From a virus (lineage: Duplodnaviria > Heunggongvirae > Uroviricota > Caudoviricetes): a DNA stretch of 10,926 nt. The stretch spans positions 1-10,926 of the IMG/VR virus record IMGVR_UViG_2728369607_000012; one strand, written 5' to 3'. The translations under genes and the position numbers were made by a program. How positions within the stretch are numbered: position 1 is the first letter of the stretch; each line of letters begins with the position of its first letter. Positions 1 through 10,926 of the stretch are shown piece after piece. Below the pieces are notes generated by a model. It was not told the origin of the DNA. It was given only the letters and a program-made list of their open reading frames with translations, and searched no databases.

Positions 1-34
1 TTTCCGGCTATCCGTTATGAAGCTGGTGGATGTT

Positions 35-85
35 CCCCGATATGGGGATCCCCATAACGGGGCTACCGGATTTTTTTCCGGTTAA
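35..85 (+). terminator. Paired CCCC-N5-GGGG hairpins followed by ACCGGA-T7-TCCGGT; possible terminator of an upstream plus-strand gene
   Basis: Imperfect 28-bp palindrome at 35-62 (ccccgatatgggga / tccccataacgggg), then accgga-ttttttt-ccggt at 65-83. Confidence 0.25.
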
Positions 86-342
86 CCTTTAATCAGGCTG
101 GTGGGTCTTACATACCCTTGATCACCGTAATGATGATCCAGATGTGCACCTTTTCCACCAATGGCGGAAAAGCTCCAACCGTAACGATGATCGCTATGGT
201 TGCCTCGATGGTCTGCGTGGTCATTATGACCATTCAGCCAGTGACCTTAATCAGAATTTTTCGCTAAAAAATGACGTTGGCCACGTCATCCGGAAAGCAC
301 AAAATCACGTCGATTTTTAATGAACGGTTAAACCGTCTTTTT

Positions 343-377
343 GTCACGGTGTGTCACTGGTTGTCACTCTCCGTCAC
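343..377. promoter_or_regulatory. Four GTCAC pentamers at exact 10-bp phasing (candidate protein-binding array)
   Basis: GTCAC at 343-347, 353-357, 363-367 and 373-377; nearby palindromes at 270-286 and 324-337. Confidence 0.35.
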
Positions 378-406
378 GATTGAGGTGGTGCTCATTCTGC
401 CCGACC

Positions 407-629
407 GCGCATTTTTGCGCTATCGGGAATATAAAACAGTTACCGCGCCGACTTCCTCAAATTGAGGTTTCCGAAAATATCAACTAGTTAACGATAAACT
501 GGCGAGTAATTAAACTACGAAAATTTCGTAGTTTGTGAATATATTCCGGCCTGCTGGTTAACAGTCCTCAGATGTGAGGGATGTAGCCAGCGCAATTTTG
601 CGTTATCGGGAATATCAAACAGTTACCGC
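407..629. repeat. Two 40-bp direct repeats (407-446 and 590-629, 37/40 identical) flanking small palindromes
   Basis: gcgcatttttgcgctatcgggaatataaaacagttaccgc versus gcgcaattttgcgttatcgggaatatcaaacagttaccgc. Between them lie hairpin-like sites CCTCA-N3-TGAGG (455-467) and CCTCA-N4-TGAGG (566-579) and a 23-bp perfect palindrome (512-534). Confidence 0.75.
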
Positions 630-674
630 CGTCAGCTACCCAGCTCAGAATTGAGCCGCCTTTTAATCAACAAG

Positions 675-965
675 TTACCGCCGTAACCGCCGTAACCGCT
701 CCGGCTTCTTCCAGTGGTACGTGATTTTCTCCTTCTCCCGATACAGTTCAACGCGGCGATTGTAGGCCAGCATTTCCAGAACGCGGATCCGTATGTCGCG
801 CATATCCGCATCATTAAGCTGGATACCATCACGGCGCATCACCTCAGCAACAACACGCGCATAATTTTCGGCTGTCACGCTGTCCGGCTGCGTGGTCTGT
901 TCGTCAGCCTGCTGGCTGATTCCAGAGACGCGGCGGATTAATCGCAGTATTTCGGCTTCTGTCAT
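675..965 (-). CDS. Hypothetical protein (96 aa) with Arg-rich C-terminus (RLRRLRR)
   Basis: ATG at 965 preceded by GAGGT with a 7-nt spacer; starts 13 nt after the TerL stop; C-terminus is encoded by three tandem 9-bp GTAACCGCC-like repeats at 674-700. No family recognised. Confidence 0.5.
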   Translation of the reverse strand: MTEAEILRLIRRVSGISQQADEQTTQPDSVTAENYARVVAEVMRRDGIQLNDADMRDIRIRVLEMLAYNRRVELYREKEKITYHWKKPERLRRLRR

Positions 966-978
966 GCTGCTGACCTCA

Positions 979-2640
979 TTACACCCCGCTAAATTCTTCC
1001 AGTTTCTGGCGGTGGCTGTCGCTTATATCAAAAGCAAAATCCTCATGCTCTGCCTGGAATGTACCAAACGCCATCAGCGCCGCTACGCTCGGGTCTATCT
1101 TGTTCGGTGATTTTTTCTTGTTCGGCTTGATATTGGCGTTCGCGTCACTCTGCATCACGACGTTACTCATCGACCAGGACAACACCGGATCGCCACGATG
1201 CACAATCACCCTGCGGTTAACAAAAACTTCGAACGATTTCGCCGCCGGACTGAATCTGAGGTAGGTTTGCGGGAACGGCTCCACCTCAAAACCAGCCCCC
1301 TGTAATTGCGTCCTGAGATGCGTGGCGTTCCACGTATCAAAGCCCACCAGCCTGATATTAAATTTCTCCGCATCCTGCATGATGTCATCTCTGATCCGGT
1401 CGTAATCAATGCAGTCACCTGGCGTTGTGCGTATCCAGCCCGCTTTAGCCCACTGGCGATAGACAGCGCGGTTTTTATTGGCGGGGTTCTGTAGCTGGAA
1501 CTCCGGCAGATAATGACGGGAAACCAGCATGATATTTTTACCGACCGGAAAGGCATAGCACACGCTGGAAATATCGCTGGTTGATGATAAGTCCAGCCCC
1601 GCGTAACACTCCTGCCCGTGTAAATCTTCCTCCGTGAACGTTCCGGCACACTCAGCCCATGCGCCGTTACCCATCCACGGGGTAGCCCCCTGGCACCAGA
1701 TATTAAATCGCTTTGTCATCATCTCCACCCATTGCGACGGAATACCCCGCGCTTTCTGGATGGTTGAGGCCAGTTTTTCACGATCCACGGAAACATCGAT
1801 GTTAGGGTTAGCCTTTATCCACATCGCCGGATCATCAACCTCGTTTTCGTCGTCCAGCTCGTAAATCAGCACAAAAATTGAATCGTTGACCTCTTCGCCG
1901 TCCAGGATCTGGCAGCAATAATCATAGTGCTGCTTACAGGCTGAAACGACGTTACTGCCCGATGTGGTAATGGCAAATAACAGCCCTTCGGGACGTGCGC
2001 CCATCCCCAGCTCAAGCGCGGAATAAACGCCGTTATCGGGGTGTAGGTGGTATTCGTCCACGATGGAAAGGCTTGGGTTTGTGCCCTCGATGGTTGCCGC
2101 TTTTGCTGCCAGCGGCTTTAACAGGCTGTTGCTTTTCGGGTGCATCACCTTGTGGGCCTGAATATTCACCCGCCTGCGTAACGGTCGGGATAAAAGGCAC
2201 ATCTGACGCGCATCATCAAAAACGATCCGCGCCTGGTCACGGCTCACCGCTGCGGTGTAAATATCCTGCTGCCCGTTCTCCATAATCAGAAACCAGTTAG
2301 CCAGAATCGCGGCGGTCGTGGATTTCGCATTTTTGCGCGGCACTTCGATAAAGGCGCTCGTGTATTTGCGCCGTCCGGTGGCCTTAACCTTAAAGCCGAG
2401 GATGCACGCAAAGGCGAACTGCTGCCACGGCTCCAGCTCAATGGATCTGCCACGCATCGGCCCTTTTACGTGCGGGCACACCCTGGAAAAGGCAATAAAC
2501 CGCTCCACAACCTCACGATCGAACGTGTAAAGGGGGCTTTCAAGGTCCGAAAAGTACCGTTTAACGGCCTGTTTCAGCCGTTTACAGGCCGGAATTTTGC
2601 CCGTTTTTACGTCTTCTGCGTACTTATTCCAGGCGGTCAA
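979..2640 (-). CDS. terL: Terminase large subunit (553 aa)
   Basis: Size, N-terminal pattern (AWNKYAEDVKTGKIPACKRLKQAVKRYFSDLE) and position directly after terS are typical of HK97/lambda-type TerL. Start codon is TTG at 2638-2640, preceded by AGAGGA with a 5-nt spacer; overlaps terS by 17 nt. Confidence 0.9.
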   Translation of the reverse strand: MTAWNKYAEDVKTGKIPACKRLKQAVKRYFSDLESPLYTFDREVVERFIAFSRVCPHVKGPMRGRSIELEPWQQFAFACILGFKVKATGRRKYTSAFIEVPRKNAKSTTAAILANWFLIMENGQQDIYTAAVSRDQARIVFDDARQMCLLSRPLRRRVNIQAHKVMHPKSNSLLKPLAAKAATIEGTNPSLSIVDEYHLHPDNGVYSALELGMGARPEGLLFAITTSGSNVVSACKQHYDYCCQILDGEEVNDSIFVLIYELDDENEVDDPAMWIKANPNIDVSVDREKLASTIQKARGIPSQWVEMMTKRFNIWCQGATPWMGNGAWAECAGTFTEEDLHGQECYAGLDLSSTSDISSVCYAFPVGKNIMLVSRHYLPEFQLQNPANKNRAVYRQWAKAGWIRTTPGDCIDYDRIRDDIMQDAEKFNIRLVGFDTWNATHLRTQLQGAGFEVEPFPQTYLRFSPAAKSFEVFVNRRVIVHRGDPVLSWSMSNVVMQSDANANIKPNKKKSPNKIDPSVAALMAFGTFQAEHEDFAFDISDSHRQKLEEFSGV

Positions 2641-2980
2641 GCTCGTCCTCTTCTTCTGTTTCCGGTGGATTTTTACGGCGGCTTATCGGGTCAAAACCGA
2701 GCAAGGAGGCCATTTTTATCATCACTCTTTCAGCGTCGGATTTTGCGCTTAATGCGGGGTTTCTGCTCTCGCCGCCCTGACTGTTAACAATGCTGAACCC
2801 GCGCGCCGCAAGGTCTGCAACGGCTTTCCGGTAAATGGAGTAGTTGACACAATACAGTTCCAGATTGCTCCAGTCGGCGGGGGTCAGGTCTCCCCGTTCC
2901 GCAAGCTGCCTAGATTTTTCCCGCCACTGCTTCACGGCGATATCATCCAGGTAGGCGGGGGCTTTCGGTGGTCTTGACAT
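2624..2980 (-). CDS. terS: Terminase small subunit, P27-like (118 aa)
   Basis: N-terminus MSRPPKAPAYLDDIAVKQWREK...LELYCVNYSIYRKA resembles P27-family small terminases; acidic C-terminus; sits immediately upstream of and overlaps terL. Confidence 0.8.
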   Translation of the reverse strand: MSRPPKAPAYLDDIAVKQWREKSRQLAERGDLTPADWSNLELYCVNYSIYRKAVADLAARGFSIVNSQGGESRNPALSAKSDAERVMIKMASLLGFDPISRRKNPPETEEEDELDRLE

Positions 2981-3269
2981 GCTTATTTTTTCGCCAGATT
3001 ATTTTTCAAAAAATTCCCGTGCATAAAAATTTGAGGAGGCGTTCGGTGCCCGGCGGGGTCGGGTTTGTCCTGAAAACGCCCCCCACCCCGTCATACAGCC
3101 TCATCAGCGATTGCGGAAACATTCCATAACCTCGCGGTCACGGTCGGTTAATCGCTTCGCTGTGATGCGTTCTGCGCGTCCTGACGCTTTATCTTTATGC
3201 CCTGTTTCCTGTGTCTTCCATGCGTCACGCTGCCTTATAAGTCCACGGATAAGGCGGTTTTGTTCCCGC
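2981..3269 (-). promoter_or_regulatory. Candidate cos / packaging-initiation region (HNH-terS intergenic spacer)
   Basis: 289-bp non-coding gap in an otherwise tightly coupled operon; GC-rich core (ggtgcccggcggggtcgggtttgtcctgaaaacgccccccaccccg, about 3038-3090) flanked by AT-rich sequence. Position between HNH and terS matches where HK97-type cos sites lie. Confidence 0.3.
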
Positions 3270-3710
3270 TCATTCATCAGCGTCATACATCCAGTTATTG
3301 CGGTTAGCGGCCCGTTCTTCCTCTTCACGAAATCCACCTGCGGCACGCTTGCTTTTTGTTGCCGGATCAAGCCATTTCGTTTTCTGGTTATGACACGCCT
3401 GGCACAATGGTTGATGGTTCCATTCGGGCCAGAAGAGAACATCATCACCGCCATTAATCGGGATAATGTGATCCACCACCACGGCGGGCGTATATATCCC
3501 CTTCTCAAGGCATCGCACGCATAACGGGTTTTTACTCAGATACATGGCGCGGTATTTGTCCCACTGTCTGGAATATCCACGCGCGCGGCGGTGTCCTCGT
3601 CTGGCATCCTCTGCACGCCATGCTGCCCGCCTGTGCTCCTCACACTTGCCGGATTTAACGCGCCTGTTACAGCCTGGTTCTGTGCATCGTCTTAATGGTT
3701 GCCACGGCAT
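3270..3710 (-). CDS. HNH endonuclease (146 aa), terminase-associated
   Basis: Cys/His zinc-finger-like N-terminus (CTEPGCNRRVKSGKCEEH) and HNH-type motif (VVDHIIPINGGDD...NHQPLCQACHNQKT); located directly upstream of terS; start overlaps connector stop (TGATG). Confidence 0.85.
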   Translation of the reverse strand: MPWQPLRRCTEPGCNRRVKSGKCEEHRRAAWRAEDARRGHRRARGYSRQWDKYRAMYLSKNPLCVRCLEKGIYTPAVVVDHIIPINGGDDVLFWPEWNHQPLCQACHNQKTKWLDPATKSKRAAGGFREEEERAANRNNWMYDADE

Positions 3711-4006
3711 CAGTACACCCCCACATCACGGTAAGCCGTCCAGAGTGCGCCAATCGTCATGGGTACGCGTGTTTTTGCGTTATCCGCGACAATCTGGCGA
3801 TTCTCATACAGGTGAGCGATAAACATCATGCAGCCAATCTTTATGGCTGGCGTGAACTCCAGCCCGTCATCAAAGCGCCTGCCTATGTGTATCTGGCACG
3901 CCTCAAGCGATGCGGCAATGTATCCGCTGATTAACTGGTCTTCCTCGTCTCCATCGATACGGCAATGGAGTTTCACTTCTTCCAGGGTGATAAGTTCTTC
4001 TGTCAT
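3710..4006 (-). CDS. Head-tail connector protein, gp6-like (98 aa)
   Basis: Size and sequence character (MTEELITLEEVKLHCRIDGDEEDQLISGYIAA...) typical of gp6-like connector proteins; ATGA start/stop overlap with the upstream gene. Confidence 0.7.
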   Translation of the reverse strand: MTEELITLEEVKLHCRIDGDEEDQLISGYIAASLEACQIHIGRRFDDGLEFTPAIKIGCMMFIAHLYENRQIVADNAKTRVPMTIGALWTAYRDVGVY

Positions 4007-4341
4007 TTTTCCGCGCCCTCACGACAAAGAATTTCAAGGCGTGTCCTGGCGACATCCGGCAACGGCTGCCCGATGATATTCAGTACACGCCCCGCCAGCG
4101 GCCCCGTACTGACCTTTATCCGGCTGGTGGCGTTGATGTCCTTCCGGTACCGTATCCAGATCCTTACGGTACCAATCGCCAGCTCTGCGCCCGATGAAAT
4201 GGCCTCCTTGCTGCTGATCATGTTCACGCTTGCCCAGAGTGTGTGACCGTCCTCCCACGTTTCGAGTATTTCGCCCGTCATGGCTCTGGTCTGTTTCAGG
4301 GTCTGAATCGTTATCCTGTCACGCAGTCGCCCTATGTTCAT
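4003..4341 (-). CDS. Head-tail adaptor / head closure protein (112 aa)
   Basis: Sequence resembles phage head-tail joining family proteins. Start chosen at ATG 4339-4341 (ATGA overlap with portal stop, GGGAGA upstream) rather than the longer form from 4383. Confidence 0.7.
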   Translation of the reverse strand: MNIGRLRDRITIQTLKQTRAMTGEILETWEDGHTLWASVNMISSKEAISSGAELAIGTVRIWIRYRKDINATSRIKVSTGPLAGRVLNIIGQPLPDVARTRLEILCREGAEK

Positions 4342-5549
4342 TCCGGTTTTTCTCCCTCGCTGATTTTTACTTCCTGTTTCCATGCCTGACTGAACTCATC
4401 ACCACCATCACGCGGTGACAGTCCTTCACGTTCGCGGGCTTCGTTCGGGCACATAACGCCGGATTTGATGCCGCACTCATAGGTGGCAAAGCGTTCGCCA
4501 GGTGTGGCCCGTAACAGGTCCGCGCTGTCAAACTCCACCTGATACCGGATACCAGGTACAGGCGAGGCCACCAGCAGGGCGTTTTTTATCTGCTGCTCAA
4601 AGTTCGCCAGCCACGGGCGCATCGTCATGGTGAGAAATGCGCGGCTTGCCTCGCTGAAATTGCTGTAGGTGCTGTTGCTGTATTCCTGCAAAAAAATCGG
4701 CGAGACGTTGAACATTCGGGCGATGTCTTCAATGGTAAAGCGACGGGAGGCCAGCCATTCAGCATCCTGATTACTCATGCCCAGCTGCTGATAGCTCATC
4801 CCCCCTTCAAGGATGGGCGTTTTTCCGGCGTTTCTGGCCCCTTTGTAGCGTTCCAGTGCGGCTAATGCCTGTTTGCCCTTCACGCCGTCCAGCCATTCGC
4901 CTGACGTGATAACCCCTGCCGCCATCATGCCATCACGCATCACGCTCGCGCCGTGGCGTTGTTGGGCCAGCCCAAGCCCCAGCGATTCGCGGCAGATGGT
5001 TACAGGTGAGCGCCCCATAAAGCCGTCATCCGTGGAGTAACGAAGGTGAAGTACTTCCCACGGTAAATAGTTGTGGGTGTTTCCGGTGTAGGCGTCAGTG
5101 ATGCAATAGCGCCAGTTGTGTTCGCCTGTCTGCTCCACGTTCACCGACTGCGGCGGGTAAGGATGTAAAGCCGCCGGAAAACCATCACGCCCCCACTGAA
5201 TAACCGCATAAGCATTACCGTTTAACAGGCAGTGGCGGATCATCATTCGCTTAAACTGGTAGGGGGTTTGCCATGCGTTCGGGCGCTCGTTGAGGATGTG
5301 ATCGACCGGATGAGAATCAAGCCACTCGCGGGCCTCCTTCCCCTTCTCATTGCGTACCAGGTACAGGTAGCATGGCATAGTAGCCACCGCCTCAGAGATG
5401 ACCGTAACGGCGTTCATGACGGCAGGCAGTGATTCCGCTGTCCCCGATGATACGTACTCACCCGCCCCCGTGTTCGATGTGCCAGCCAGCGCCATAAATT
5501 CATCAAGCGTCATGCTGCGCTGCTCTTTTTTTCTTCTGAAAGGCCACAT
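4338..5549 (-). CDS. Portal protein, HK97-type (403 aa)
   Basis: Size and sequence typical of HK97-family portal proteins; flanked by prohead protease and head-tail adaptor genes. Confidence 0.88.
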   Translation of the reverse strand: MWPFRRKKEQRSMTLDEFMALAGTSNTGAGEYVSSGTAESLPAVMNAVTVISEAVATMPCYLYLVRNEKGKEAREWLDSHPVDHILNERPNAWQTPYQFKRMMIRHCLLNGNAYAVIQWGRDGFPAALHPYPPQSVNVEQTGEHNWRYCITDAYTGNTHNYLPWEVLHLRYSTDDGFMGRSPVTICRESLGLGLAQQRHGASVMRDGMMAAGVITSGEWLDGVKGKQALAALERYKGARNAGKTPILEGGMSYQQLGMSNQDAEWLASRRFTIEDIARMFNVSPIFLQEYSNSTYSNFSEASRAFLTMTMRPWLANFEQQIKNALLVASPVPGIRYQVEFDSADLLRATPGERFATYECGIKSGVMCPNEAREREGLSPRDGGDEFSQAWKQEVKISEGEKPE

Positions 5550-5550
5550 A

Positions 5551-6123
5551 TCACACCCCCGCTAAATCCACCCACCAGCGGCGATTATCCGCACGCGGCA
5601 TTTTTTCGGGGTGCTGCTCATACAGGGAACGGCGGGCCAGCTCCACGCCGGAATCGGGGTAAGCCGGTACCGATGTAACGGTAATTTCGTACAGTTCCGC
5701 CACCAGCACGGTGCGCACGCATGGATCTGTTGTGGTATCCCATACATCCTTACGGGAGCGAAAGCCAAAGCTCATGCCGGATATATCACCACGTTTAACC
5801 AGTTCGATAACGTCGCGCCCTGTACTGGTATCCGGTGGGGTCAGTTCAAAGCGTAACCCTGTTTCATCCTCTTCCAGTTTCAGCGTGCCGGAACGGGTGC
5901 GCCCCAGTAACATACTGTGGTCATGCTCATACAGGCCGCGAACGTCATTACCCGCCGCAAGCCATTCAGTAAACGCCCCCCGCTGGAATTTTTCGTAAAA
6001 CTCACCCCATAACAGTTCTGAAAGCTTATCCCAGCGAACAACGTAGCCTGTAAGCGTGTTGCTGCCGCTGGTGGTGATTTCCGATGACCGGATTTCCATA
6101 CTCTTCATAATTTTTTCACCCAT
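5551..6123 (-). CDS. Prohead maturation protease, HK97-type (190 aa; exact start uncertain)
   Basis: Sequence typical of HK97-family prohead proteases; sits between major capsid and portal genes. Three ATGs within the first nine codons make the start ambiguous. Confidence 0.82.
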   Translation of the reverse strand: MGEKIMKSMEIRSSEITTSGSNTLTGYVVRWDKLSELLWGEFYEKFQRGAFTEWLAAGNDVRGLYEHDHSMLLGRTRSGTLKLEEDETGLRFELTPPDTSTGRDVIELVKRGDISGMSFGFRSRKDVWDTTTDPCVRTVLVAELYEITVTSVPAYPDSGVELARRSLYEQHPEKMPRADNRRWWVDLAGV

Positions 6124-6133
6124 AAAACACTAA

Positions 6134-6151
6134 AGGGGCTTTTAAGCCCCT
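6134..6151 (-). terminator. Stem-loop plus U-rich tract between capsid and protease genes (partial terminator / attenuator)
   Basis: On the minus strand: AGGGGCTT-AAAA-GCCCCT-type hairpin followed by TTAGTGTTTT immediately before the protease ATG. Confidence 0.35.
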
Positions 6152-6162
6152 TCTGTATGCTG

Positions 6163-7320
6163 TTAATCGTCGTCCTGTGGCAGTTCCAGAATCTTGATCG
6201 CGTTCGAATCCACCACGCCACCGCCTAAATATTTCTGCGTGAAAATTTTGATGAAACCCGGCTCTGTGAGGTTGTCCGGTCTGGTGCGAACACCTGTTTC
6301 GTGATCAACAATGTAGTAACCGCGTTTGAAGTCACCCAGGGCAATAACGTTATCAGGCATAAACTCCAGATATTCGACCGGAAGGCCCAGCAACGTATCA
6401 GGATCACCCGCCTGTAAACGGTCACGCCAGATGTAATCACCGTTCGCGTTCTTCACCTTCTGGAGTTTTGCCGCCGTCGTGGAGTTAACCACCCAGACCG
6501 CGTTTTTGCGGTATTTTTTACGTAATGCAAATTTCAGGTCGATCAGCGGGTCCGCAGATGTCCACGCCAGAGATTCGGAAGGTTTAATTACCTGCAACGT
6601 ACCAAAATCACGCTCTTTGTCGTTCTTCTCTGCACGGGGTACGGATAAAAAACCTTTTGCTTTTTTGTCACCGTCGCCCACAACCAGATCGCTTTCTTCG
6701 GTTTCCGTGAAGGTGTCGCCAATCTCACCCGTCAGCCATGAAAGGATGTCCACATCGGAAAAATCCACGATTTCCTGTGTGGTGCGCGGGTACGCATAGA
6801 CCGGATACAGCTTAATGCTCACCTCGTTAATCTGCGGGGTGCTGGTCTGTTCGCGTGCCTTACCCTCTTCACCGTGGTTAACGGTCGCACCGCCAGCGGA
6901 AACAAGCTGCTTAAACTCGTTGCTGCTGATTTTTTTCACGGTACAGATGCGGCGCATGGTGGACTCATCCGCCAGCATTCGCATGATTTCGGTGTTCAGT
7001 TCGGGGATAACGGTATAACCACCATCAGCGGGAACGCCTGTACTTAATGCGCGGGTTTCACCTGTCAGAATGTAGCTGCGTAGTTCTGCGGGGTCAGTGG
7101 TCTGGCTGCTTTTACCTGGCTTGCTGCGCTCTTCGTCTGCAATGGCTTCAAGGCGGGAAATGTCTTTATCGAGGGATTCAGCTTTAGCGCGTAATTCGTC
7201 AAATTTTGCGCCCTCAGCATCGTTAAGACTGCGGTTTTCTTTTTCCGCGTTCTCCAGCATGTCGCGCATCTGATTTTTAATGGCGGTTTTCTGCTGGCGT
7301 AATTCGATTATTCTCGGCAT
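6163..7320 (-). CDS. Major capsid protein, HK97-type (385 aa)
   Basis: Size typical of HK97-fold capsid proteins; N-terminal region rich in charged, coiled-coil-like sequence (delta/scaffold-like domain); followed by protease and portal genes. Confidence 0.88.
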   Translation of the reverse strand: MPRIIELRQQKTAIKNQMRDMLENAEKENRSLNDAEGAKFDELRAKAESLDKDISRLEAIADEERSKPGKSSQTTDPAELRSYILTGETRALSTGVPADGGYTVIPELNTEIMRMLADESTMRRICTVKKISSNEFKQLVSAGGATVNHGEEGKAREQTSTPQINEVSIKLYPVYAYPRTTQEIVDFSDVDILSWLTGEIGDTFTETEESDLVVGDGDKKAKGFLSVPRAEKNDKERDFGTLQVIKPSESLAWTSADPLIDLKFALRKKYRKNAVWVVNSTTAAKLQKVKNANGDYIWRDRLQAGDPDTLLGLPVEYLEFMPDNVIALGDFKRGYYIVDHETGVRTRPDNLTEPGFIKIFTQKYLGGGVVDSNAIKILELPQDDD

Positions 7321-7357
7321 AAAAAAAGTCCTGGGGTTAAGTAAGGAACTCCAGGAC
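7321..7357 (-). promoter_or_regulatory. Terminator-like hairpin plus U7 abutting the capsid start codon
   Basis: Minus strand reads GTCCTGG-AGTTCCTTACTTAACC-CCAGGAC then TTTTTTT then ATG. The only SD-like AGGA lies inside the 3' arm of the stem. Confidence 0.4.
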
Positions 7358-7410
7358 GCGGCAAAAACTCAACCGTTTTTCATAAGGGAATCAGCAATCG
7401 CACCGATCGT

Positions 7411-7458
7411 TTTCCCGCCTGGTAATGAATATTGGCGAGCACATTAACAGGCGGGAAA
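7411..7458 (-). repeat. Inverted repeat in capsid-operon leader (11-bp perfect arms, extendable to 17 bp with one mismatch)
   Basis: tttcccgcctg (7411-7421) and caggcgggaaa (7448-7458) are exact reverse complements. Confidence 0.6.
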
Positions 7459-7504
7459 GTGGCCCCAGCGTCCTGGCACCACGGGCGAGAATAATCATGA
7501 TTCA

Positions 7505-7560
7505 GTTCGGGTAAAATATGCCGATCCGCTCAGTGAACAACGTGGAACAACCACGAACAA
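7505..7560 (-). promoter_or_regulatory. Candidate promoter / activator site for the capsid operon: three helically phased TTGTTC hexamers
   Basis: On the minus strand TTGTTC recurs three times at exactly 10-bp spacing (plus-strand GAACAA at 7535-7540, 7545-7550, 7555-7560). The last copy sits 16 bp upstream of a TATTTT -10-like hexamer (plus 7513-7518). Confidence 0.3.
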
Positions 7561-7565
7561 ATAAT

Positions 7566-7601
7566 TTACAAAAAATAACAAAAAGCCGGATTGCTCCGGC
7601 T
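7566..7601 (-). terminator. Rho-independent terminator
   Basis: Minus strand: AGCCGGA-GCAA-TCCGGCT stem-loop (GNRA-type loop) followed by TTTTTGTTATTTTTT; lies downstream of the 53-aa ORF stop at 7624. Confidence 0.65.
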
Positions 7602-7623
7602 GCGTGGTGTGGTTCTGATATTC

Positions 7624-7785
7624 CTACTCTGCTAATTTGCTCAGCCCCATGTCTGCGTAAGTGCGATTTACTGCATTTCTCAGGTCTGCGTAGTTCTCCG
7701 TTGGCGGCTCCGGTGTGCCCTTGCTGCTCTGTTTTACCTGCGGGTCGTCCACCAGCCGCCCGTAAGCTGCAATTTGTGCTGTCAT
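7624..7785 (-). CDS. Small hypothetical protein (53 aa)
   Basis: ATG at 7783-7785 preceded by GAGGTGG with a 4-nt spacer; starts 9 nt after the upstream gene stop; followed by the intrinsic terminator. Below the 60-aa cutoff of the supplied ORF track; found by manual translation. Confidence 0.45.
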   Translation of the reverse strand: MTAQIAAYGRLVDDPQVKQSSKGTPEPPTENYADLRNAVNRTYADMGLSKLAE

Positions 7786-7794
7786 ATTGCCACC

Positions 7795-8100
7795 TCAGTG
7801 AAGCGATCCGGCATTGTTCTTTTTCATCTCTTCCATCATTTTTTCAGTGAGCATTACGCACTGAAACCCCATGTTTTTGATGTCTACGGGTTTCATGCCT
7901 TTGTCAGTGGATATCACAGGCAGAATATCCTGATACACATCGCGGTCAGGGTAACTAAGCACACAAAGCGCCCATGATGCCACGGGTGAGGATCCTTCGA
8001 CTGTTTCAACCCACCAGCCTGGTGTAGCTGCGCTTATTTGCAGAATCGTGATCCGTCCGTTGTGCTTGTAAAATTTTTCACCAAATTTTGGTTCGCTCAT
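7795..8100 (-). CDS. Hypothetical protein (101 aa)
   Basis: Start ATG overlaps the stop of the upstream ORF (ATGA); co-oriented in a tightly packed operon. No family recognised. Confidence 0.55.
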   Translation of the reverse strand: MSEPKFGEKFYKHNGRITILQISAATPGWWVETVEGSSPVASWALCVLSYPDRDVYQDILPVISTDKGMKPVDIKNMGFQCVMLTEKMMEEMKKNNAGSLH

Positions 8101-8348
8101 GATTCCACCTCTCCGGTTTTAACGTTGATTGTTGTTACCTGTTCCGCTTCGGCAATCTCCCGTTCTGTCAGCGTGGCAAAGTTTGCCGCCGCTGTGGTCA
8201 TGAATGCGCTTATCAGTTCGGGATGCTCCTTCGCGTATCCTTCCCCCGCGTGGCGGTCTATCGTTCTGATTGCCACCTTTAAAGCGTGCTCTGTCATGTC
8301 TAACGCTTTATATTTTGGCTGTGTTCTGTCTCTGCGTTTTTGTGTCAT
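8097..8348 (-). CDS. Hypothetical protein (83 aa from ATG 8348; start uncertain)
   Basis: The longest form (from 8396) has its N-terminus encoded by the iteron repeats, so an internal start is more plausible. ATG 8348 is abutted by GGGGAG; ATG 8297 is an alternative. Confidence 0.45.
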   Translation of the reverse strand: MTQKRRDRTQPKYKALDMTEHALKVAIRTIDRHAGEGYAKEHPELISAFMTTAAANFATLTEREIAEAEQVTTINVKTGEVES

Positions 8349-8351
8349 CTC

Positions 8352-8525
8352 CCCACCTATACCCACTTTTACTCCCCACTTTTCACAATTCCCCATTTAT
8401 CATGCTGTTTCATAAGGATTTTTTTGCTCCCCACTTTTTGGGATGTATACAGGTCAAAAAGTGGGGGATCGTGTTTAAATTTTGTTAAATTCCCCATACC
8501 CACCACTTTTGCCACCCACTTTTTA
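8352..8525. repeat. Iteron array: candidate replication origin
   Basis: CCCACTTTT-type motif in direct orientation at about 8362-8370, 8374-8383, 8429-8439, 8499-8510 and 8515-8524, and inverted at 8456-8466. The 8429-8439 and 8456-8466 copies form an 11-bp perfect inverted repeat around a 16-bp spacer containing GTATAC. An AT-rich stretch lies at 8471-8490. The array begins at the replication-protein stop codon. Confidence 0.55.
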
Positions 8526-9932
8526 CAGTGGCCCTACATCATCGCCGTCAACATAGATAACGCCGTCTTTTTCCAGCTTGCCCAGCCAGCGCCGGAAGTG
8601 CTTTATTTCGTACCCCAGTTTTTTCATGTCATCACGTAACAGCGGGATCGTGCACTTGTCGCCGTTCTGTGTGCGTGAACGGATACACCCCCATAGCGCG
8701 GTATGGTTTTCCGTCTTGTTGCCTGCCTCTTCGATGCGCTCCAGTTCAACGGGAGGGCGCGGCTTATCCACCACCACCAGCGACGTGATTAACTCCCCGT
8801 CAGCGTCGGTAAAAAGCTCCACCACCCGCAAATCATAGGCAGCCTCTTTGAGTTCCTCCGCGTCCTTCATTTTGGTGCATGAGATAACCAGCGCTTCGCT
8901 TCCTGCGTCCTCCCTGCGTATCCGGTATTCAGCATCCAGTGATGCACGAAATGCACTGGAACCGCGCGCGCCTTTCGTCTCATCCTTGCCGGAATGGTGA
9001 ACCACCAGCACCGTGGCCCCTGTGCGTCGTTTCAGTTCGTCACAACCACGGATAAACGCCCCCATATCACGGGAATCATTTTCATCATTCCCACCAAAGC
9101 AACGCGCCAGCGTATCCAGAATAATCATGCGTACAGGTTTACCCGTTTCCCGCTCCACCTGACGGGCAGCGATAACCATTTCATCAACATCAAGCGGGAC
9201 CGCCGGAAAGATGGGACGGTTTACCAGATACAGATTTTTCACCTGCTCACCGTGCACAACCTCCCAGGCTTTTACACGACGCGGAACGCCGATACCGCCT
9301 TCACCAACCACATAGAGAACAGCGCCATGCGCCACCCTGCGGCCTCCCCACTGGCGGCCCGTGGAAACGTGACACGCCCACGATCCGGCAAGGAATGATT
9401 TATAGGAACCGCTCGCCCCGTATATGCTGCAAAGCGACGATGCCGGAATAATCCCCTTTACCACGTAATCAAGCTGTGTGTCGTATCCGGTAGATCCAAC
9501 GCTCATCGGTAGCGTGGTTTTTCGCTGGGGGATTTTTTTCATGACCAGGCTTTCCCCGCGTTCCCATGCCTCCCTAAGCCGTGGAAGCTGGTCGCTCCAT
9601 TCCTCCAGCAATTCGAAATTTTCAGAAAGTAGCCGCGCCTCCTGGACTCCGGCGATCGCCAGTTTCGTGGCGATGGTTAACAGCTGCGGCTCTTCAATAT
9701 TTCCGGCGCGTATCACCGTCGCCCTGTATCGCCCATCATCAACAATCTGGAGGTTATCCAGTTCGCTTAACTGATAACGCCCCAGATAAACGGGAGGGAC
9801 TGGATCTCCTGCTTTTTTTGCCTGTGCAATGATGTAATGCTCTGCGAATGAATGAGCATCAATACCCGCAAAAATAATCGCATCGGTGTATTTATCTTTC
9901 GGTAATCGTTTTACGTTCGGTGCCAGTTTCAT
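8523..9932 (-). CDS. Replication protein with RecA/DnaB-like ATPase core (469 aa); satellite or phage replication initiator-helicase
   Basis: Walker A-like GASGSYKS, Walker B-like RMIILD, and VVHHSGKDETKGARGSSA motif typical of RepA/DnaB-like replicative ATPases; N- and C-terminal extra domains; start forms an ATGA overlap with the upstream ORF. Confidence 0.8.
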   Translation of the reverse strand: MKLAPNVKRLPKDKYTDAIIFAGIDAHSFAEHYIIAQAKKAGDPVPPVYLGRYQLSELDNLQIVDDGRYRATVIRAGNIEEPQLLTIATKLAIAGVQEARLLSENFELLEEWSDQLPRLREAWERGESLVMKKIPQRKTTLPMSVGSTGYDTQLDYVVKGIIPASSLCSIYGASGSYKSFLAGSWACHVSTGRQWGGRRVAHGAVLYVVGEGGIGVPRRVKAWEVVHGEQVKNLYLVNRPIFPAVPLDVDEMVIAARQVERETGKPVRMIILDTLARCFGGNDENDSRDMGAFIRGCDELKRRTGATVLVVHHSGKDETKGARGSSAFRASLDAEYRIRREDAGSEALVISCTKMKDAEELKEAAYDLRVVELFTDADGELITSLVVVDKPRPPVELERIEEAGNKTENHTALWGCIRSRTQNGDKCTIPLLRDDMKKLGYEIKHFRRWLGKLEKDGVIYVDGDDVGPL

Positions 9933-10228
9933 TTTTTACCCCTGAATCCGTTAATCATGGTTTTCAGCTTCTGGATGTTTGCCCGTGCCCTGGCGTTGCT
10001 GGTGGGCACGTTATGCGGCGCGGTCTGTACCAGAGAAAAATCACGCCGGAACTGATAAACAGGCATCACGCAATCATATTCGTAACCTTCACGGCGGTAA
10101 GTTACGCACCGTCCCGCCACGCCCTTAATCATTACCGTACCGCCGTACTGGTCGCGGTAAATATCACCGCGCGTAAATTTAGGGTGAGTGTTGCCACTGG
10201 CAGTTAAGCCAGAATATTTAAGTTTCAT
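9929..10228 (-). CDS. Hypothetical protein (99 aa)
   Basis: ATG at 10228 preceded by GGAGAA with an 8-nt spacer; stop overlaps the replication-protein start. No family recognised. Confidence 0.55.
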   Translation of the reverse strand: MKLKYSGLTASGNTHPKFTRGDIYRDQYGGTVMIKGVAGRCVTYRREGYEYDCVMPVYQFRRDFSLVQTAPHNVPTSNARARANIQKLKTMINGFRGKK

Positions 10229-10233
10229 TATTT

Positions 10234-10467
10234 TTATTCTCCGGTGTGGGGCGCTTTATACTGGTCGTGTAATGTCTCTATTTCCTGCAACTCATTTATT
10301 ACAGGCTCAAGAAGCGTTATTAATGCCGTGGCAATTCTTGATTTTTGTTTGTCGCGTTCATTGTCGCCAAGTGTTTCAAGCCATATGCGCAATATTTCCA
10401 TCATATTTTCACTGTGAGAAAGTGCAAGAAATACGCGATCTGTTGTTTCGTGGTAAATATCACGCAT
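10234..10467 (-). CDS. Hypothetical protein (77 aa)
   Basis: ATG at 10467 preceded by GAGGATG with a 6-nt spacer; overlaps the upstream ORF by 8 nt. Confidence 0.5.
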   Translation of the reverse strand: MRDIYHETTDRVFLALSHSENMMEILRIWLETLGDNERDKQKSRIATALITLLEPVINELQEIETLHDQYKAPHTGE

Positions 10468-10693
10468 GGCTTACATCCTCAGGAAATTTTCTTCTGTAAC
10501 GAGCCTCTGCCACATATTCCGCATAATCGGCGGCGATATTCAGTACATCAAGCCCCGTTGATTTATATTCTCTCGTGGAAAGTAAGAAAAAAGCCGCTCT
10601 AATAAGTTCTGGCATTGACGAAAGCGCATCAGCCGCATCATCAGATACGCCGGAAAATTCCTGTTTCAGGGAATTAAAACGATCATCAAGCAT
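10460..10693 (-). CDS. Hypothetical acidic protein (77 aa)
   Basis: ATG at 10693 sits 2 nt downstream of a G9 tract on the coding strand; part of the same small-gene operon. Confidence 0.45.
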   Translation of the reverse strand: MLDDRFNSLKQEFSGVSDDAADALSSMPELIRAAFFLLSTREYKSTGLDVLNIAADYAEYVAEARYRRKFPEDVSHA

Positions 10694-10926
10694 AACCCCC
10701 CCCCATTTTCACAATCAGCAATCAGGATAGCTTTGGCCTCATTCAGCGCCATATCAGCACTAAGTTGCATAACCGCCAGCGAATGAGGAACGAAAGCCCC
10801 TGCATATTCTGTTTCACTGGTGGCGTGCTTATGCGCCCTGTCAGCAATAACAGAAATATCAATAAGCGCGTGCATCAGCGTAGTGAGCGCGGCGGCTGCT
10901 GCGTCCGGTGTGGTTTTATTGTGCAT
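10666..10926 (-). CDS. Hypothetical protein (86 aa or longer; may continue beyond the window edge)
   Basis: Open frame reaches the window end, where an ATG sits at 10924-10926; the 3' end reads through the G9 tract (encodes GGG). Confidence 0.4.
   Translation of the reverse strand: MHNKTTPDAAAAALTTLMHALIDISVIADRAHKHATSETEYAGAFVPHSLAVMQLSADMALNEAKAILIADCENGGGLCLMIVLIP
10696..10704. repeat. Homopolymeric C9 (G9 on coding strand) tract
   Basis: Nine consecutive C at 10696-10704, read directly from the sequence. Confidence 0.9.

Follow-up and report, generated by a model that had tools for sequence, protein, structure and literature searches.

What is the repeat-dense DNA that follows the last gene of a phage satellite? 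The window analyzed here is a stretch of 10,926 nucleotides (IMG/VR record IMGVR_UViG_2728369607_000012, positions 1 to 10,926) and is an E. coli capsid-forming satellite of the type related to phage-inducible chromosomal islands (PICIs). According to the list of open reading frames (ORFs), the minus strand carries all window genes, and positions 234 to 674 lie between orf96, the last island gene, and the integrase-specific island end. Near-identical islands of about 15 kb are located beside thiM (L001, 99% identity over positions 1 to 1000) and beside phoQ (L002), with the integrase at the far end. The original prediction, made from the letters alone, proposed several protein-binding sites at 234 to 674 and named an attachment site with recombinase arms, an alternative cos or pac site, or an operator cluster as candidates. 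The region is island DNA, not host chromosome, and it is a noncoding satellite tail in two parts, a unit array (407 to 677) and an optional cassette (about 238 to 399). Our preferred reading, to which we assign a probability of roughly 0.4, is that the tail is an array of palindromes resembling the operators of phage Roi/Rha proteins, each with an IHF box, which may act as a docking or decoy platform or as a sensor for helper regulators.

The unit array downstream of orf96

All of the features predicted for 234 to 674 were present, with coordinates correct to within 1 nt, and they were compared with 500 dinucleotide-preserving shuffles of the region. The two 40-nt direct repeats (407 to 446 and 590 to 629) were identical at 37 of 40 positions and lay 183 bp apart, start to start. 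The longest repeat with at most three mismatches was accordingly 40 nt, against a shuffle mean of 14.8 and a maximum of 19 (0/500 shuffles reached it). The 11-nt arms of the perfect 23-bp palindrome at 512 to 534 compared with a mean arm of 4.9 (1/500). The three CTCA-N3/4-TGAG mini-palindromes, CCTCAAATTGAGG (455 to 467), CCTCAGATGTGAGG (566 to 579), and GCTCAGAATTGAGC (643 to 656), had no counterpart in the shuffles (0/500), and the pentamer GTCAC, at 343, 353, 363, and 373 in an exact 10-bp phase, gave four phased copies against a shuffle maximum of two (0/500). Perfect hairpins with a 5-bp stem and a 3- to 4-nt loop numbered seven, against a mean of 1.0 (1/500). The ORFs of the region were neither credible nor similar to any family, in line with the predicted lack of a convincing gene.

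The folding of 234 to 674 was about 4 standard deviations better than that of the shuffles on both strands, an excess that is expected of palindrome-rich DNA. An RNA-level element, with hairpins serving as 3'-untranslated-region stabilizers of the island operon, similar to repetitive extragenic palindromes (REPs), or as part of a small RNA, would fit the many short stems with compensatory changes, the fold z-scores near -4, and stem-edge G-T pairs outnumbering A-C pairs on the plus strand (12 versus 6). We consider it improbable, because the two strands were equally stable, which points to DNA palindromes, and because stems of 4 to 5 bp with 3-nt loops are marginal as RNA hairpins. Furthermore, Rfam 15 gave no match with an E value of 1 or less over positions 1 to 3400 on either strand, and a scan found no promoter-like site, the best hand-picked candidates around the 23-bp palindrome reaching only 8/12. 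The sequence upstream of the conserved core described below was also not conserved.

Beyond what the original prediction described, in each 40-mer a palindrome precedes an IHF consensus box, and further copies of the same unit contain two of the three CTCA-N3/4-TGAG palindromes. Together they form a tandem series of four units, each about 50 bp long and composed of a 13- to 14-bp palindrome, 7 to 11 nt including an A-tract, and then the IHF consensus box (WATCARNNNNTTR). The four units are co-oriented, with palindromes at 407, 455, 590, and 643 and boxes at 430, 478, 613, and 665. The perfect consensus WATCAANNNNTTR was found in the 10.9 kb only at 478, 613, and 665, in all cases on the plus strand, against 0.43 occurrences expected in the whole window. 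The features of the array are as follows.

407-446, plus strand: unit 1, the first copy of the 40-mer; palindrome GCGCA-TTTT-TGCGC (407-420) and IHF-like box TATAAAACAGTTA (430-442) with one mismatch
448-490, plus strand: unit 2; palindrome CCTCA-AAT-TGAGG (455-467), A-tract, and IHF box TATCAACTAGTTA (478-490)
512-534, unstranded: perfect 23-bp palindrome with core CTACGAAAATTTCGTAG and an operator-like look; 0.03 matches expected in the window
566-579, unstranded: lone palindrome CCTCA-GATG-TGAGG, with CTCA/TGAG half-sites like those of unit 2 and without an IHF box of its own; kept in island L003
590-629, plus strand: unit 3, the second copy of the 40-mer; palindrome GCGCA-ATTT-TGCGT (590-602) and IHF box TATCAAACAGTTA (613-625)
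643-677, plus strand: unit 4; palindrome GCTCA-GAAT-TGAGC (643-656) and IHF box AATCAACAAGTTA (665-677), which overlaps the orf96 stop codon

The tail was aligned to variant islands, and 67 related loci were surveyed. Unit 1 was missing in three islands (L003, L007, and L013). Unit 2 was the most widely conserved unit and was kept in all variant tails except that of L018. In L003 and L004, the 52-bp segment 633 to 682 was missing and unit 3 directly adjoined the orf96 stop codon; this segment is therefore a local duplication. Because the last box overlaps the orf96 stop codon, and an earlier unit does so in the shorter relatives, the array has grown outward from the end of the gene by duplication. 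This growth explains both the 40-mer and its tail (ACAGTTACCGCC), which repeats the 3' end of orf96 together with the stop codon. The idea that the 40-mer is the scar of tandem integrations at one attachment site did not hold: the complete island L001 holds the repeat at its two internal positions alone, with no copy at the opposite end, and the relatives indicate an internal duplication of the orf96-end unit.

The unit architecture recurred across the 67 related loci, with one to four units directly 3' of orf96. These contained 62 distinct units with 18 different stems, and 60 of the 62 had a perfect palindrome with arms of 4 bp or more. Arms of 5 bp or more, placed in the fixed geometry, were found in 42 of the 62 units, compared with 7% of background positions. 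The 23-bp palindrome was present in about 22 of the 67 loci. In perC-type islands, perC is followed by four to five units that point the other way relative to the gene, and two copies of the palindrome core are present. A core of about 95 bp (448 to 545), comprising unit 2 and the 23-bp palindrome, was conserved most widely. Some part of 234 to 674 was matched in 1248 of 5426 complete E. coli genomes, with 448 to 636 as the most widespread segment, while the full arrangement was found in 27 of them. The tail occurred with different replication modules, either the RepA helicase or TOPRIM/DUF927.

As a side observation, the palindrome CTACGAAATTTTCGTAG is also located at about 267 to 283 of L017, a perC-type island of strain ABU 83972, approximately 100 bp downstream of origin-like iterons (GGTTCAGTTGG repeats). 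This second site beside the iterons indicates that the palindrome serves as a module in more than one intergenic setting.

Homology to Rha-family genes of lambdoid phages

Unit 2 (448 to 483) was identical at 33 of 36 positions to the roi gene of phages HK620, H-19B, HK75, HK633, HK140, and CUS-3 and of many Shiga toxin (Stx) phages, and a perC-type island shared 43 consecutive identical nucleotides with HK620 roi. Different unit types matched different roi alleles. In related islands, a CCCCC-AAT-GGGGG unit matched roi of VT2-Sakai and HK629 (45/50; E value, 3e-9), and a CCTGC-ATT-GCAGG unit matched roi of CP-1639 (36/41) and of HK97. Weaker matches were found in other Rha-domain genes, labeled DNA-binding protein, that adjoin cro in Stx phages. 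The matched genes carry the Rha domain (PF09669), except for one 43-nt match in a KilA-N-domain gene of Salmonella phage UPF_BP1. Within the Rha-domain genes, the match was always in the sense orientation and always at about nucleotides 120 to 170 of the gene (codons 43 to 57, approximately).

The internal site of these genes (roi of HK022, HK620, and HK97; rha of phi80 and P22) is built like the satellite unit, with an 11- to 13-bp palindrome, an A-tract, and an IHF box, in addition to the direct nucleotide homology (33/36, 43/43, and 45/50). In the phages, the site is a single copy in frame within coding sequence, whereas in the satellites it is noncoding, present in one to four tandem copies, and located beside unrelated genes without a Rha gene. 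No Roi homologue was encoded by the islands in the 67-locus survey, and searches for related loci with orf96 and with a Rha-domain alignment returned close relatives only. Roi reportedly binds a site in its own gene beside an IHF site, and IHF is said to stabilize this binding (Clerget & Boccard 1996). According to a passage in PMC4936722, which cites Henthorn & Friedman 1995, IHF regulates the genes of the Rha family, and phage growth is blocked by their products in hosts deficient in IHF.

Next, we compared 12 Rha-family alleles. The residues encoded at the site differed (LPQIEV, NPPMVV, LPALQV, LPPMGI, SAPMAN, FPQTVEI, and others), and most of the alleles nevertheless kept a DNA palindrome there, with arms of up to 11 bp. 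A perfect IHF box was present at gene nucleotides 153-154 in 8 of the 12. The retention of the palindrome while the encoded residues differ points to a DNA-level constraint within coding sequence, and the palindrome with its IHF box appears to be a general dual-coding feature of the Rha family.

Two side observations concern the same site. In a set of Rha-family genes (L016, L073, L074, L076, L077, L158, and L162), a palindrome, perfect and up to 25 bp long, lies at about codons 43 to 50, usually with a perfect IHF box after it at gene nucleotides 153-154; in L162, the Stx1_14744 DNA-binding protein gene, it lies at about nucleotides 125 to 150. In the window, the palindrome at 151 to 171 (TTTTCCACCAATGGCGGAAAA) agreed at 20 of 21 positions with the one that the Ant gene of Salmonella phage SSU5, a member of the Rha family, carries at equivalent codons, indicating that units resembling the roi site extend into 38 to 243.

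Only the same piece of roi, about 50 nt long, recurred in the islands, from several alleles and without neighboring roi sequence. A remnant of a roi pseudogene was rejected, because the homology is limited to these 50 nt and the flanks showed no similarity in any frame. An antisense RNA against roi mRNA was also rejected, because the orientation of the units relative to island transcription is not constant.

The units could also be nonfunctional recombination debris, that is, short patches that were exchanged with helper roi genes and later duplicated by unequal crossing-over, with palindromes that stay perfect through template-switch (quasi-palindrome) correction and not through selection. 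The extreme mosaicism, in which indel ends coincide with repeated motifs, the copy number of 0 to 4, and the complete lack of units in one island (L018) would fit such a process. We nevertheless hold it to be unlikely, because the one 50-nt piece recurs, from several alleles. In addition, the core at 448 to 545 is conserved across island families to the same degree as the adjacent coding sequence, and the conserved box positions among the units are the positions of the IHF consensus.

The preferred reading, Roi/Rha-operator-like palindromes with IHF boxes, supposes the following. Host IHF would bend the DNA at each unit box, and dimeric helper proteins of the Rha/Roi type would dock on the palindromes beside the boxes, so that the tail would serve as a docking or decoy platform, or a sensor, for helper regulators. 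The three CTCA-N3/4-TGAG palindromes may be sites for the HK620-type class of Roi. Binding of IHF and of Roi, and any consequence for the helper, are predicted here from the anatomy, homology, and distribution of the units. The gene set of the window agrees with the capsid-forming PICI family described for EcCIEDL933, whose helpers are lambdoid or HK97-like phages. A bolder version, in which each unit mimics the operator and IHF site of a different helper Rha/Roi allele and the array titrates or detects the regulators of the infecting helper, seems doubtful to us. If this version is true, the array would parallel, at the level of DNA, the protein-based sensing of helpers and would record an arms race in palindrome specificities, with diversifying decoy or sensor operators in the satellites of lambdoid phages.

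Several points weigh against the preferred reading. The lack of units in L018 and the range of 0 to 4 copies imply that the array is dispensable or only modulatory. Some satellite palindromes have 4-nt spacers, including three in the window, whereas those of the phage operators have 3 nt. In perC-type islands, the units are reversed relative to the neighboring gene. In the phage genes, a conserved I-N-x-L-G motif is encoded by the same nucleotides as the IHF box, and part of the conservation of the box there is at the protein level. The match between recognition helix and palindrome among the alleles could be simple linkage in one mosaic block, and template-switch correction can maintain perfect palindromes without selection.

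IHF boxes, operators, and terminators are known kinds of element, and what appears to be new is the tandem array of homologues of the helper roi site at a satellite end. Searches of the available literature on the motifs, and on PICIs together with IHF, returned no description of it. The ways in which Gram-negative PICIs detect their helper phages and interfere with them are only partly understood, and since the 1980s and 1990s the function of the phage Rha/Roi proteins and their link to IHF have been obscure. A satellite element that is conserved and composed of the Roi/IHF sites of several roi alleles gives a cheap and concrete experimental handle on both questions.

The cassette, the attachment site, and the sites of packaging and replication

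The other part of the tail, the cassette, is an optional insertion, which was missing in L003, L007, and L013. In L018, it directly adjoins orf96, with no IHF units between them. Two opposed hairpins resembling intrinsic terminators and the GTCAC sites belong to this cassette and are separate from the unit array.

238-399, unstranded: inserted cassette, with a length of about 160 to 185 bp that varies among islands; its bounds are the 21-bp repeat GTGGTCATTATGACCATTCAG (217-237) and, in decayed form, a second copy (384-399)
266-288, minus strand: terminator-like site for minus-strand transcripts; stem TGACGT/ACGTCA (272-288), then T6 (271-266)
324-342, plus strand: terminator-like site for plus-strand transcripts; ACGGT-TAA-ACCGT (324-336), then C and T5
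343-377, plus strand: four GTCAC pentamers in exact 10-bp phase within the cassette; five in L018

In L019, both bounding copies are clear, and the cassette is flanked by GTGGTCATTATGACCATTCAG and GTGGTGATTATCACCATTCAG. The hairpin at 324 to 342 was found by the consensus scan for terminators. That at 266 to 288 was read by eye and is present in the minimum-energy folds, and the scan did not list it; it probably ends the island operon. The GTCAC array was found in 14 of the 67 loci, irrespective of integrase type, and its helically phased sites may serve a protein.

These hairpins bear on another explanation, in which the units bind host IHF alone and form, together with the hairpins, a bent and terminator-rich insulator without any phage protein. 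Such a boundary would end the long island operon and block transcription entering from the attachment-site side. It is consistent with the clustering of consensus IHF boxes, the opposed orientation of the two hairpins, and the excess of self-complementarity on both strands. Its position, at the operon end beside host genes able to read inward (phoQ in L002 and L003), would also be suitable. Conversely, it leaves the palindrome matches to several roi alleles without explanation and does not account for palindromes that vary in sequence while keeping their symmetry. The hairpins beside the boxes lack U-tracts, and the orientation of the units relative to the upstream gene is not constant. We regard this explanation as possible but rather unlikely.

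A related comparison can be made with the repetitive IHF-binding palindromes of E. coli, bacterial interspersed mosaic element type 1 (RIP/BIME-1), in which REP palindromes flank an IHF site. The tail resembles them in its short palindromes with an IHF site, its intergenic position at an operon end, and its variable copy number. The tail palindromes are much shorter than those of RIP/BIME-1 (5-bp arms). The element occurs in satellite islands only, at a median of one place per genome. No REP-like sequence was seen on reading 234 to 674, which was not a formal search against the REP consensus.

We then considered the remaining candidates, namely recombinase arm sites of the phage attachment site (attP), an alternative cos or pac site, and the integration scar. 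In their favor, attP arms and lambda cosB typically have IHF boxes and phased direct repeats, and GTCAC is part of the consensus of the lambda Int arm site. Lambda-type attP arms, which contain arm-type Int, IHF, and Xis sites, resemble the tail in having several IHF boxes, and its 10-bp-phased GTCAC repeats are a further likeness. In contrast to such arms, the tail is too far from the crossover region, independent of the integrase, and partly dispensable. The terminal direct repeat of the complete island L001 (43 bp exact, about 75 bp with mismatches) lies 68 to 110 bp to the left of window position 1, and that of phoQ-type islands lies 105 to 125 bp to the left of window position 38. The GTCAC sites are about 420 bp or more from the crossover region, and the IHF boxes are 500 to 750 bp away. 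Positions 38 to 1100 were about 99% identical in islands at phoQ/roxA, which have another terminal repeat and integrases only 67% identical to that of L001 at thiM. Since this segment is common to islands with different integrases, the integrase-specific module ends at about window position 37. Moreover, L003, an O157:H7 island that occupies the same phoQ/roxA site and whose integrase is 95% identical, lacks window positions 244 to 434, including the GTCAC array and the first 40-mer copy. A comparison with the empty site at thiM gave no clean contiguous match.

A packaging function was also considered. Lambda cosB, with its R sites and IHF site I1, and the cos of HK97-type phages resemble the tail in having an IHF box among short repeats near the terminase genes. 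They differ from it in position, because the tail lies downstream of terL and not upstream of terS. No lambda-type cosN (GGGCGGCGACCT, at most one mismatch) was found in the window. A lambda-like cos derived from GCGCCGACTTCC was rejected, because its weak resemblance to cosN was not conserved in the relatives. In HK97-type phages, the interval from the HNH gene to terS holds cos. LR881103, the linear record of a Klebsiella satellite that is related, starts 22 bp upstream of terS, and its right end aligns to window position 3066/3067, likewise between HNH and terS and adjoining a G+C-rich stretch (AAACCCGACCCCGCCGGGC, minus strand). The cos of the island is probably located at about 3040 to 3077, most likely near 3050 to 3077, with the HNH gene and its small ORF on one side and terS on the other. 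Separately, L003 carries a lambda-like module of capsid, decoration, and TerS genes, and two perfect lambda cosN sites at 9522 to 9533 (plus strand) and 10389 to 10400 (minus strand) flank its terS, outside the tail.

A replication origin is likewise repeat-dense noncoding DNA. The published layout of PICI origins consists of two iteron sets that flank an AT-rich core, 3' of the rep gene (PMC6092414). In the window, iterons resembling CCCCACTTTT are present on both sides of an AT-rich core at about 8340 to 8522, directly 3' of the gene for the RepA-family helicase, and this segment is probably a PICI-type origin. The tail was rejected as the origin, as this architecture is located there instead.

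Altogether, the distances, the exchange of integrases, the positions of the cosN copies and of the related satellite terminus, and the internal location of the 40-mer make an attachment, packaging, or scar origin of the tail highly improbable. The expectation of several protein-binding sites stands insofar as the density of repeats makes such sites probable, with the operator cluster as the closest of the three proposed functions. When these islands are annotated, the labels att, cos, and ori should be avoided for the repeat-dense DNA that follows the last gene.

Island genes and minor observations

The genes of the window in their order from the helicase to the island end are as follows.

8523-9932, minus strand: RepA-family helicase
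6163-7320, minus strand: major capsid protein
5551-6123, minus strand: prohead protease
4338-5549, minus strand: portal
4003-4383, minus strand: head completion protein
3710-4006, minus strand: head-tail connector
3270-3710, minus strand: HNH endonuclease
2624-2980, minus strand: TerS (PF05119, Terminase_4; P27 family in the annotation of RefSeq relatives)
979-2640, minus strand: TerL
675-965, minus strand: orf96, the last island gene, encoding a 96-amino-acid hypothetical protein, with its stop codon within the fourth IHF box

The gene orf96 is kept as the last gene across island types. Its product matched PHROG 1561, a group of unknown function, over the full length (E value, 1.7e-55), and its counterparts in RefSeq relatives are labeled hypothetical. 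An AlphaFold2 model showed three helices, with a predicted local distance difference test score (pLDDT) of 71. A role of orf96 as the binding protein was rejected, because there was no Pfam, NCBIfam, or PDB match and no fold match for the three-helix model.

Two small hydrophobic ORFs are located at 108 to 233 (minus strand) and 187 to 267 (plus strand), with family matches for neither. The minus-strand ORF (MVIMTTQTIEAT...) was open in all variants and ended in two frameshifted C termini. A type I toxin-like function for the small ORFs near 108 to 267 was rejected, because the plus-strand ORF was interrupted by stop codons in some relatives and the C terminus of the minus-strand ORF was frameshifted between variants. 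Within the cassette, positions 248 to 306, including the hairpin TGACGTTGGCCA..., were weakly similar to the DNA that immediately follows the lysozyme gene R in Stx and Shigella phages (78 to 80% over 59 nt; E values, 1e-4 to 5e-3), a similarity that was judged too weak for interpretation.

The terminal direct repeats are located at 13891 to 13965 and 28851 to 28925 of the L001 locus, at about 13875 to 13895 of L002, and at about 1939 to 1959 of L021. They hold tandem 11- to 12-bp motifs (two copies of AACTGACCACACA and two of AACTACACC), followed by GAACAA-rich repeats, and the tandem motifs may be integrase-binding sites. Finally, a 9-bp tandem duplication, GTAACCGCC (675 to 706), is present in the 3' end of orf96 and extends the protein to 96 amino acids (...RLRRLRR) from the usual 93.

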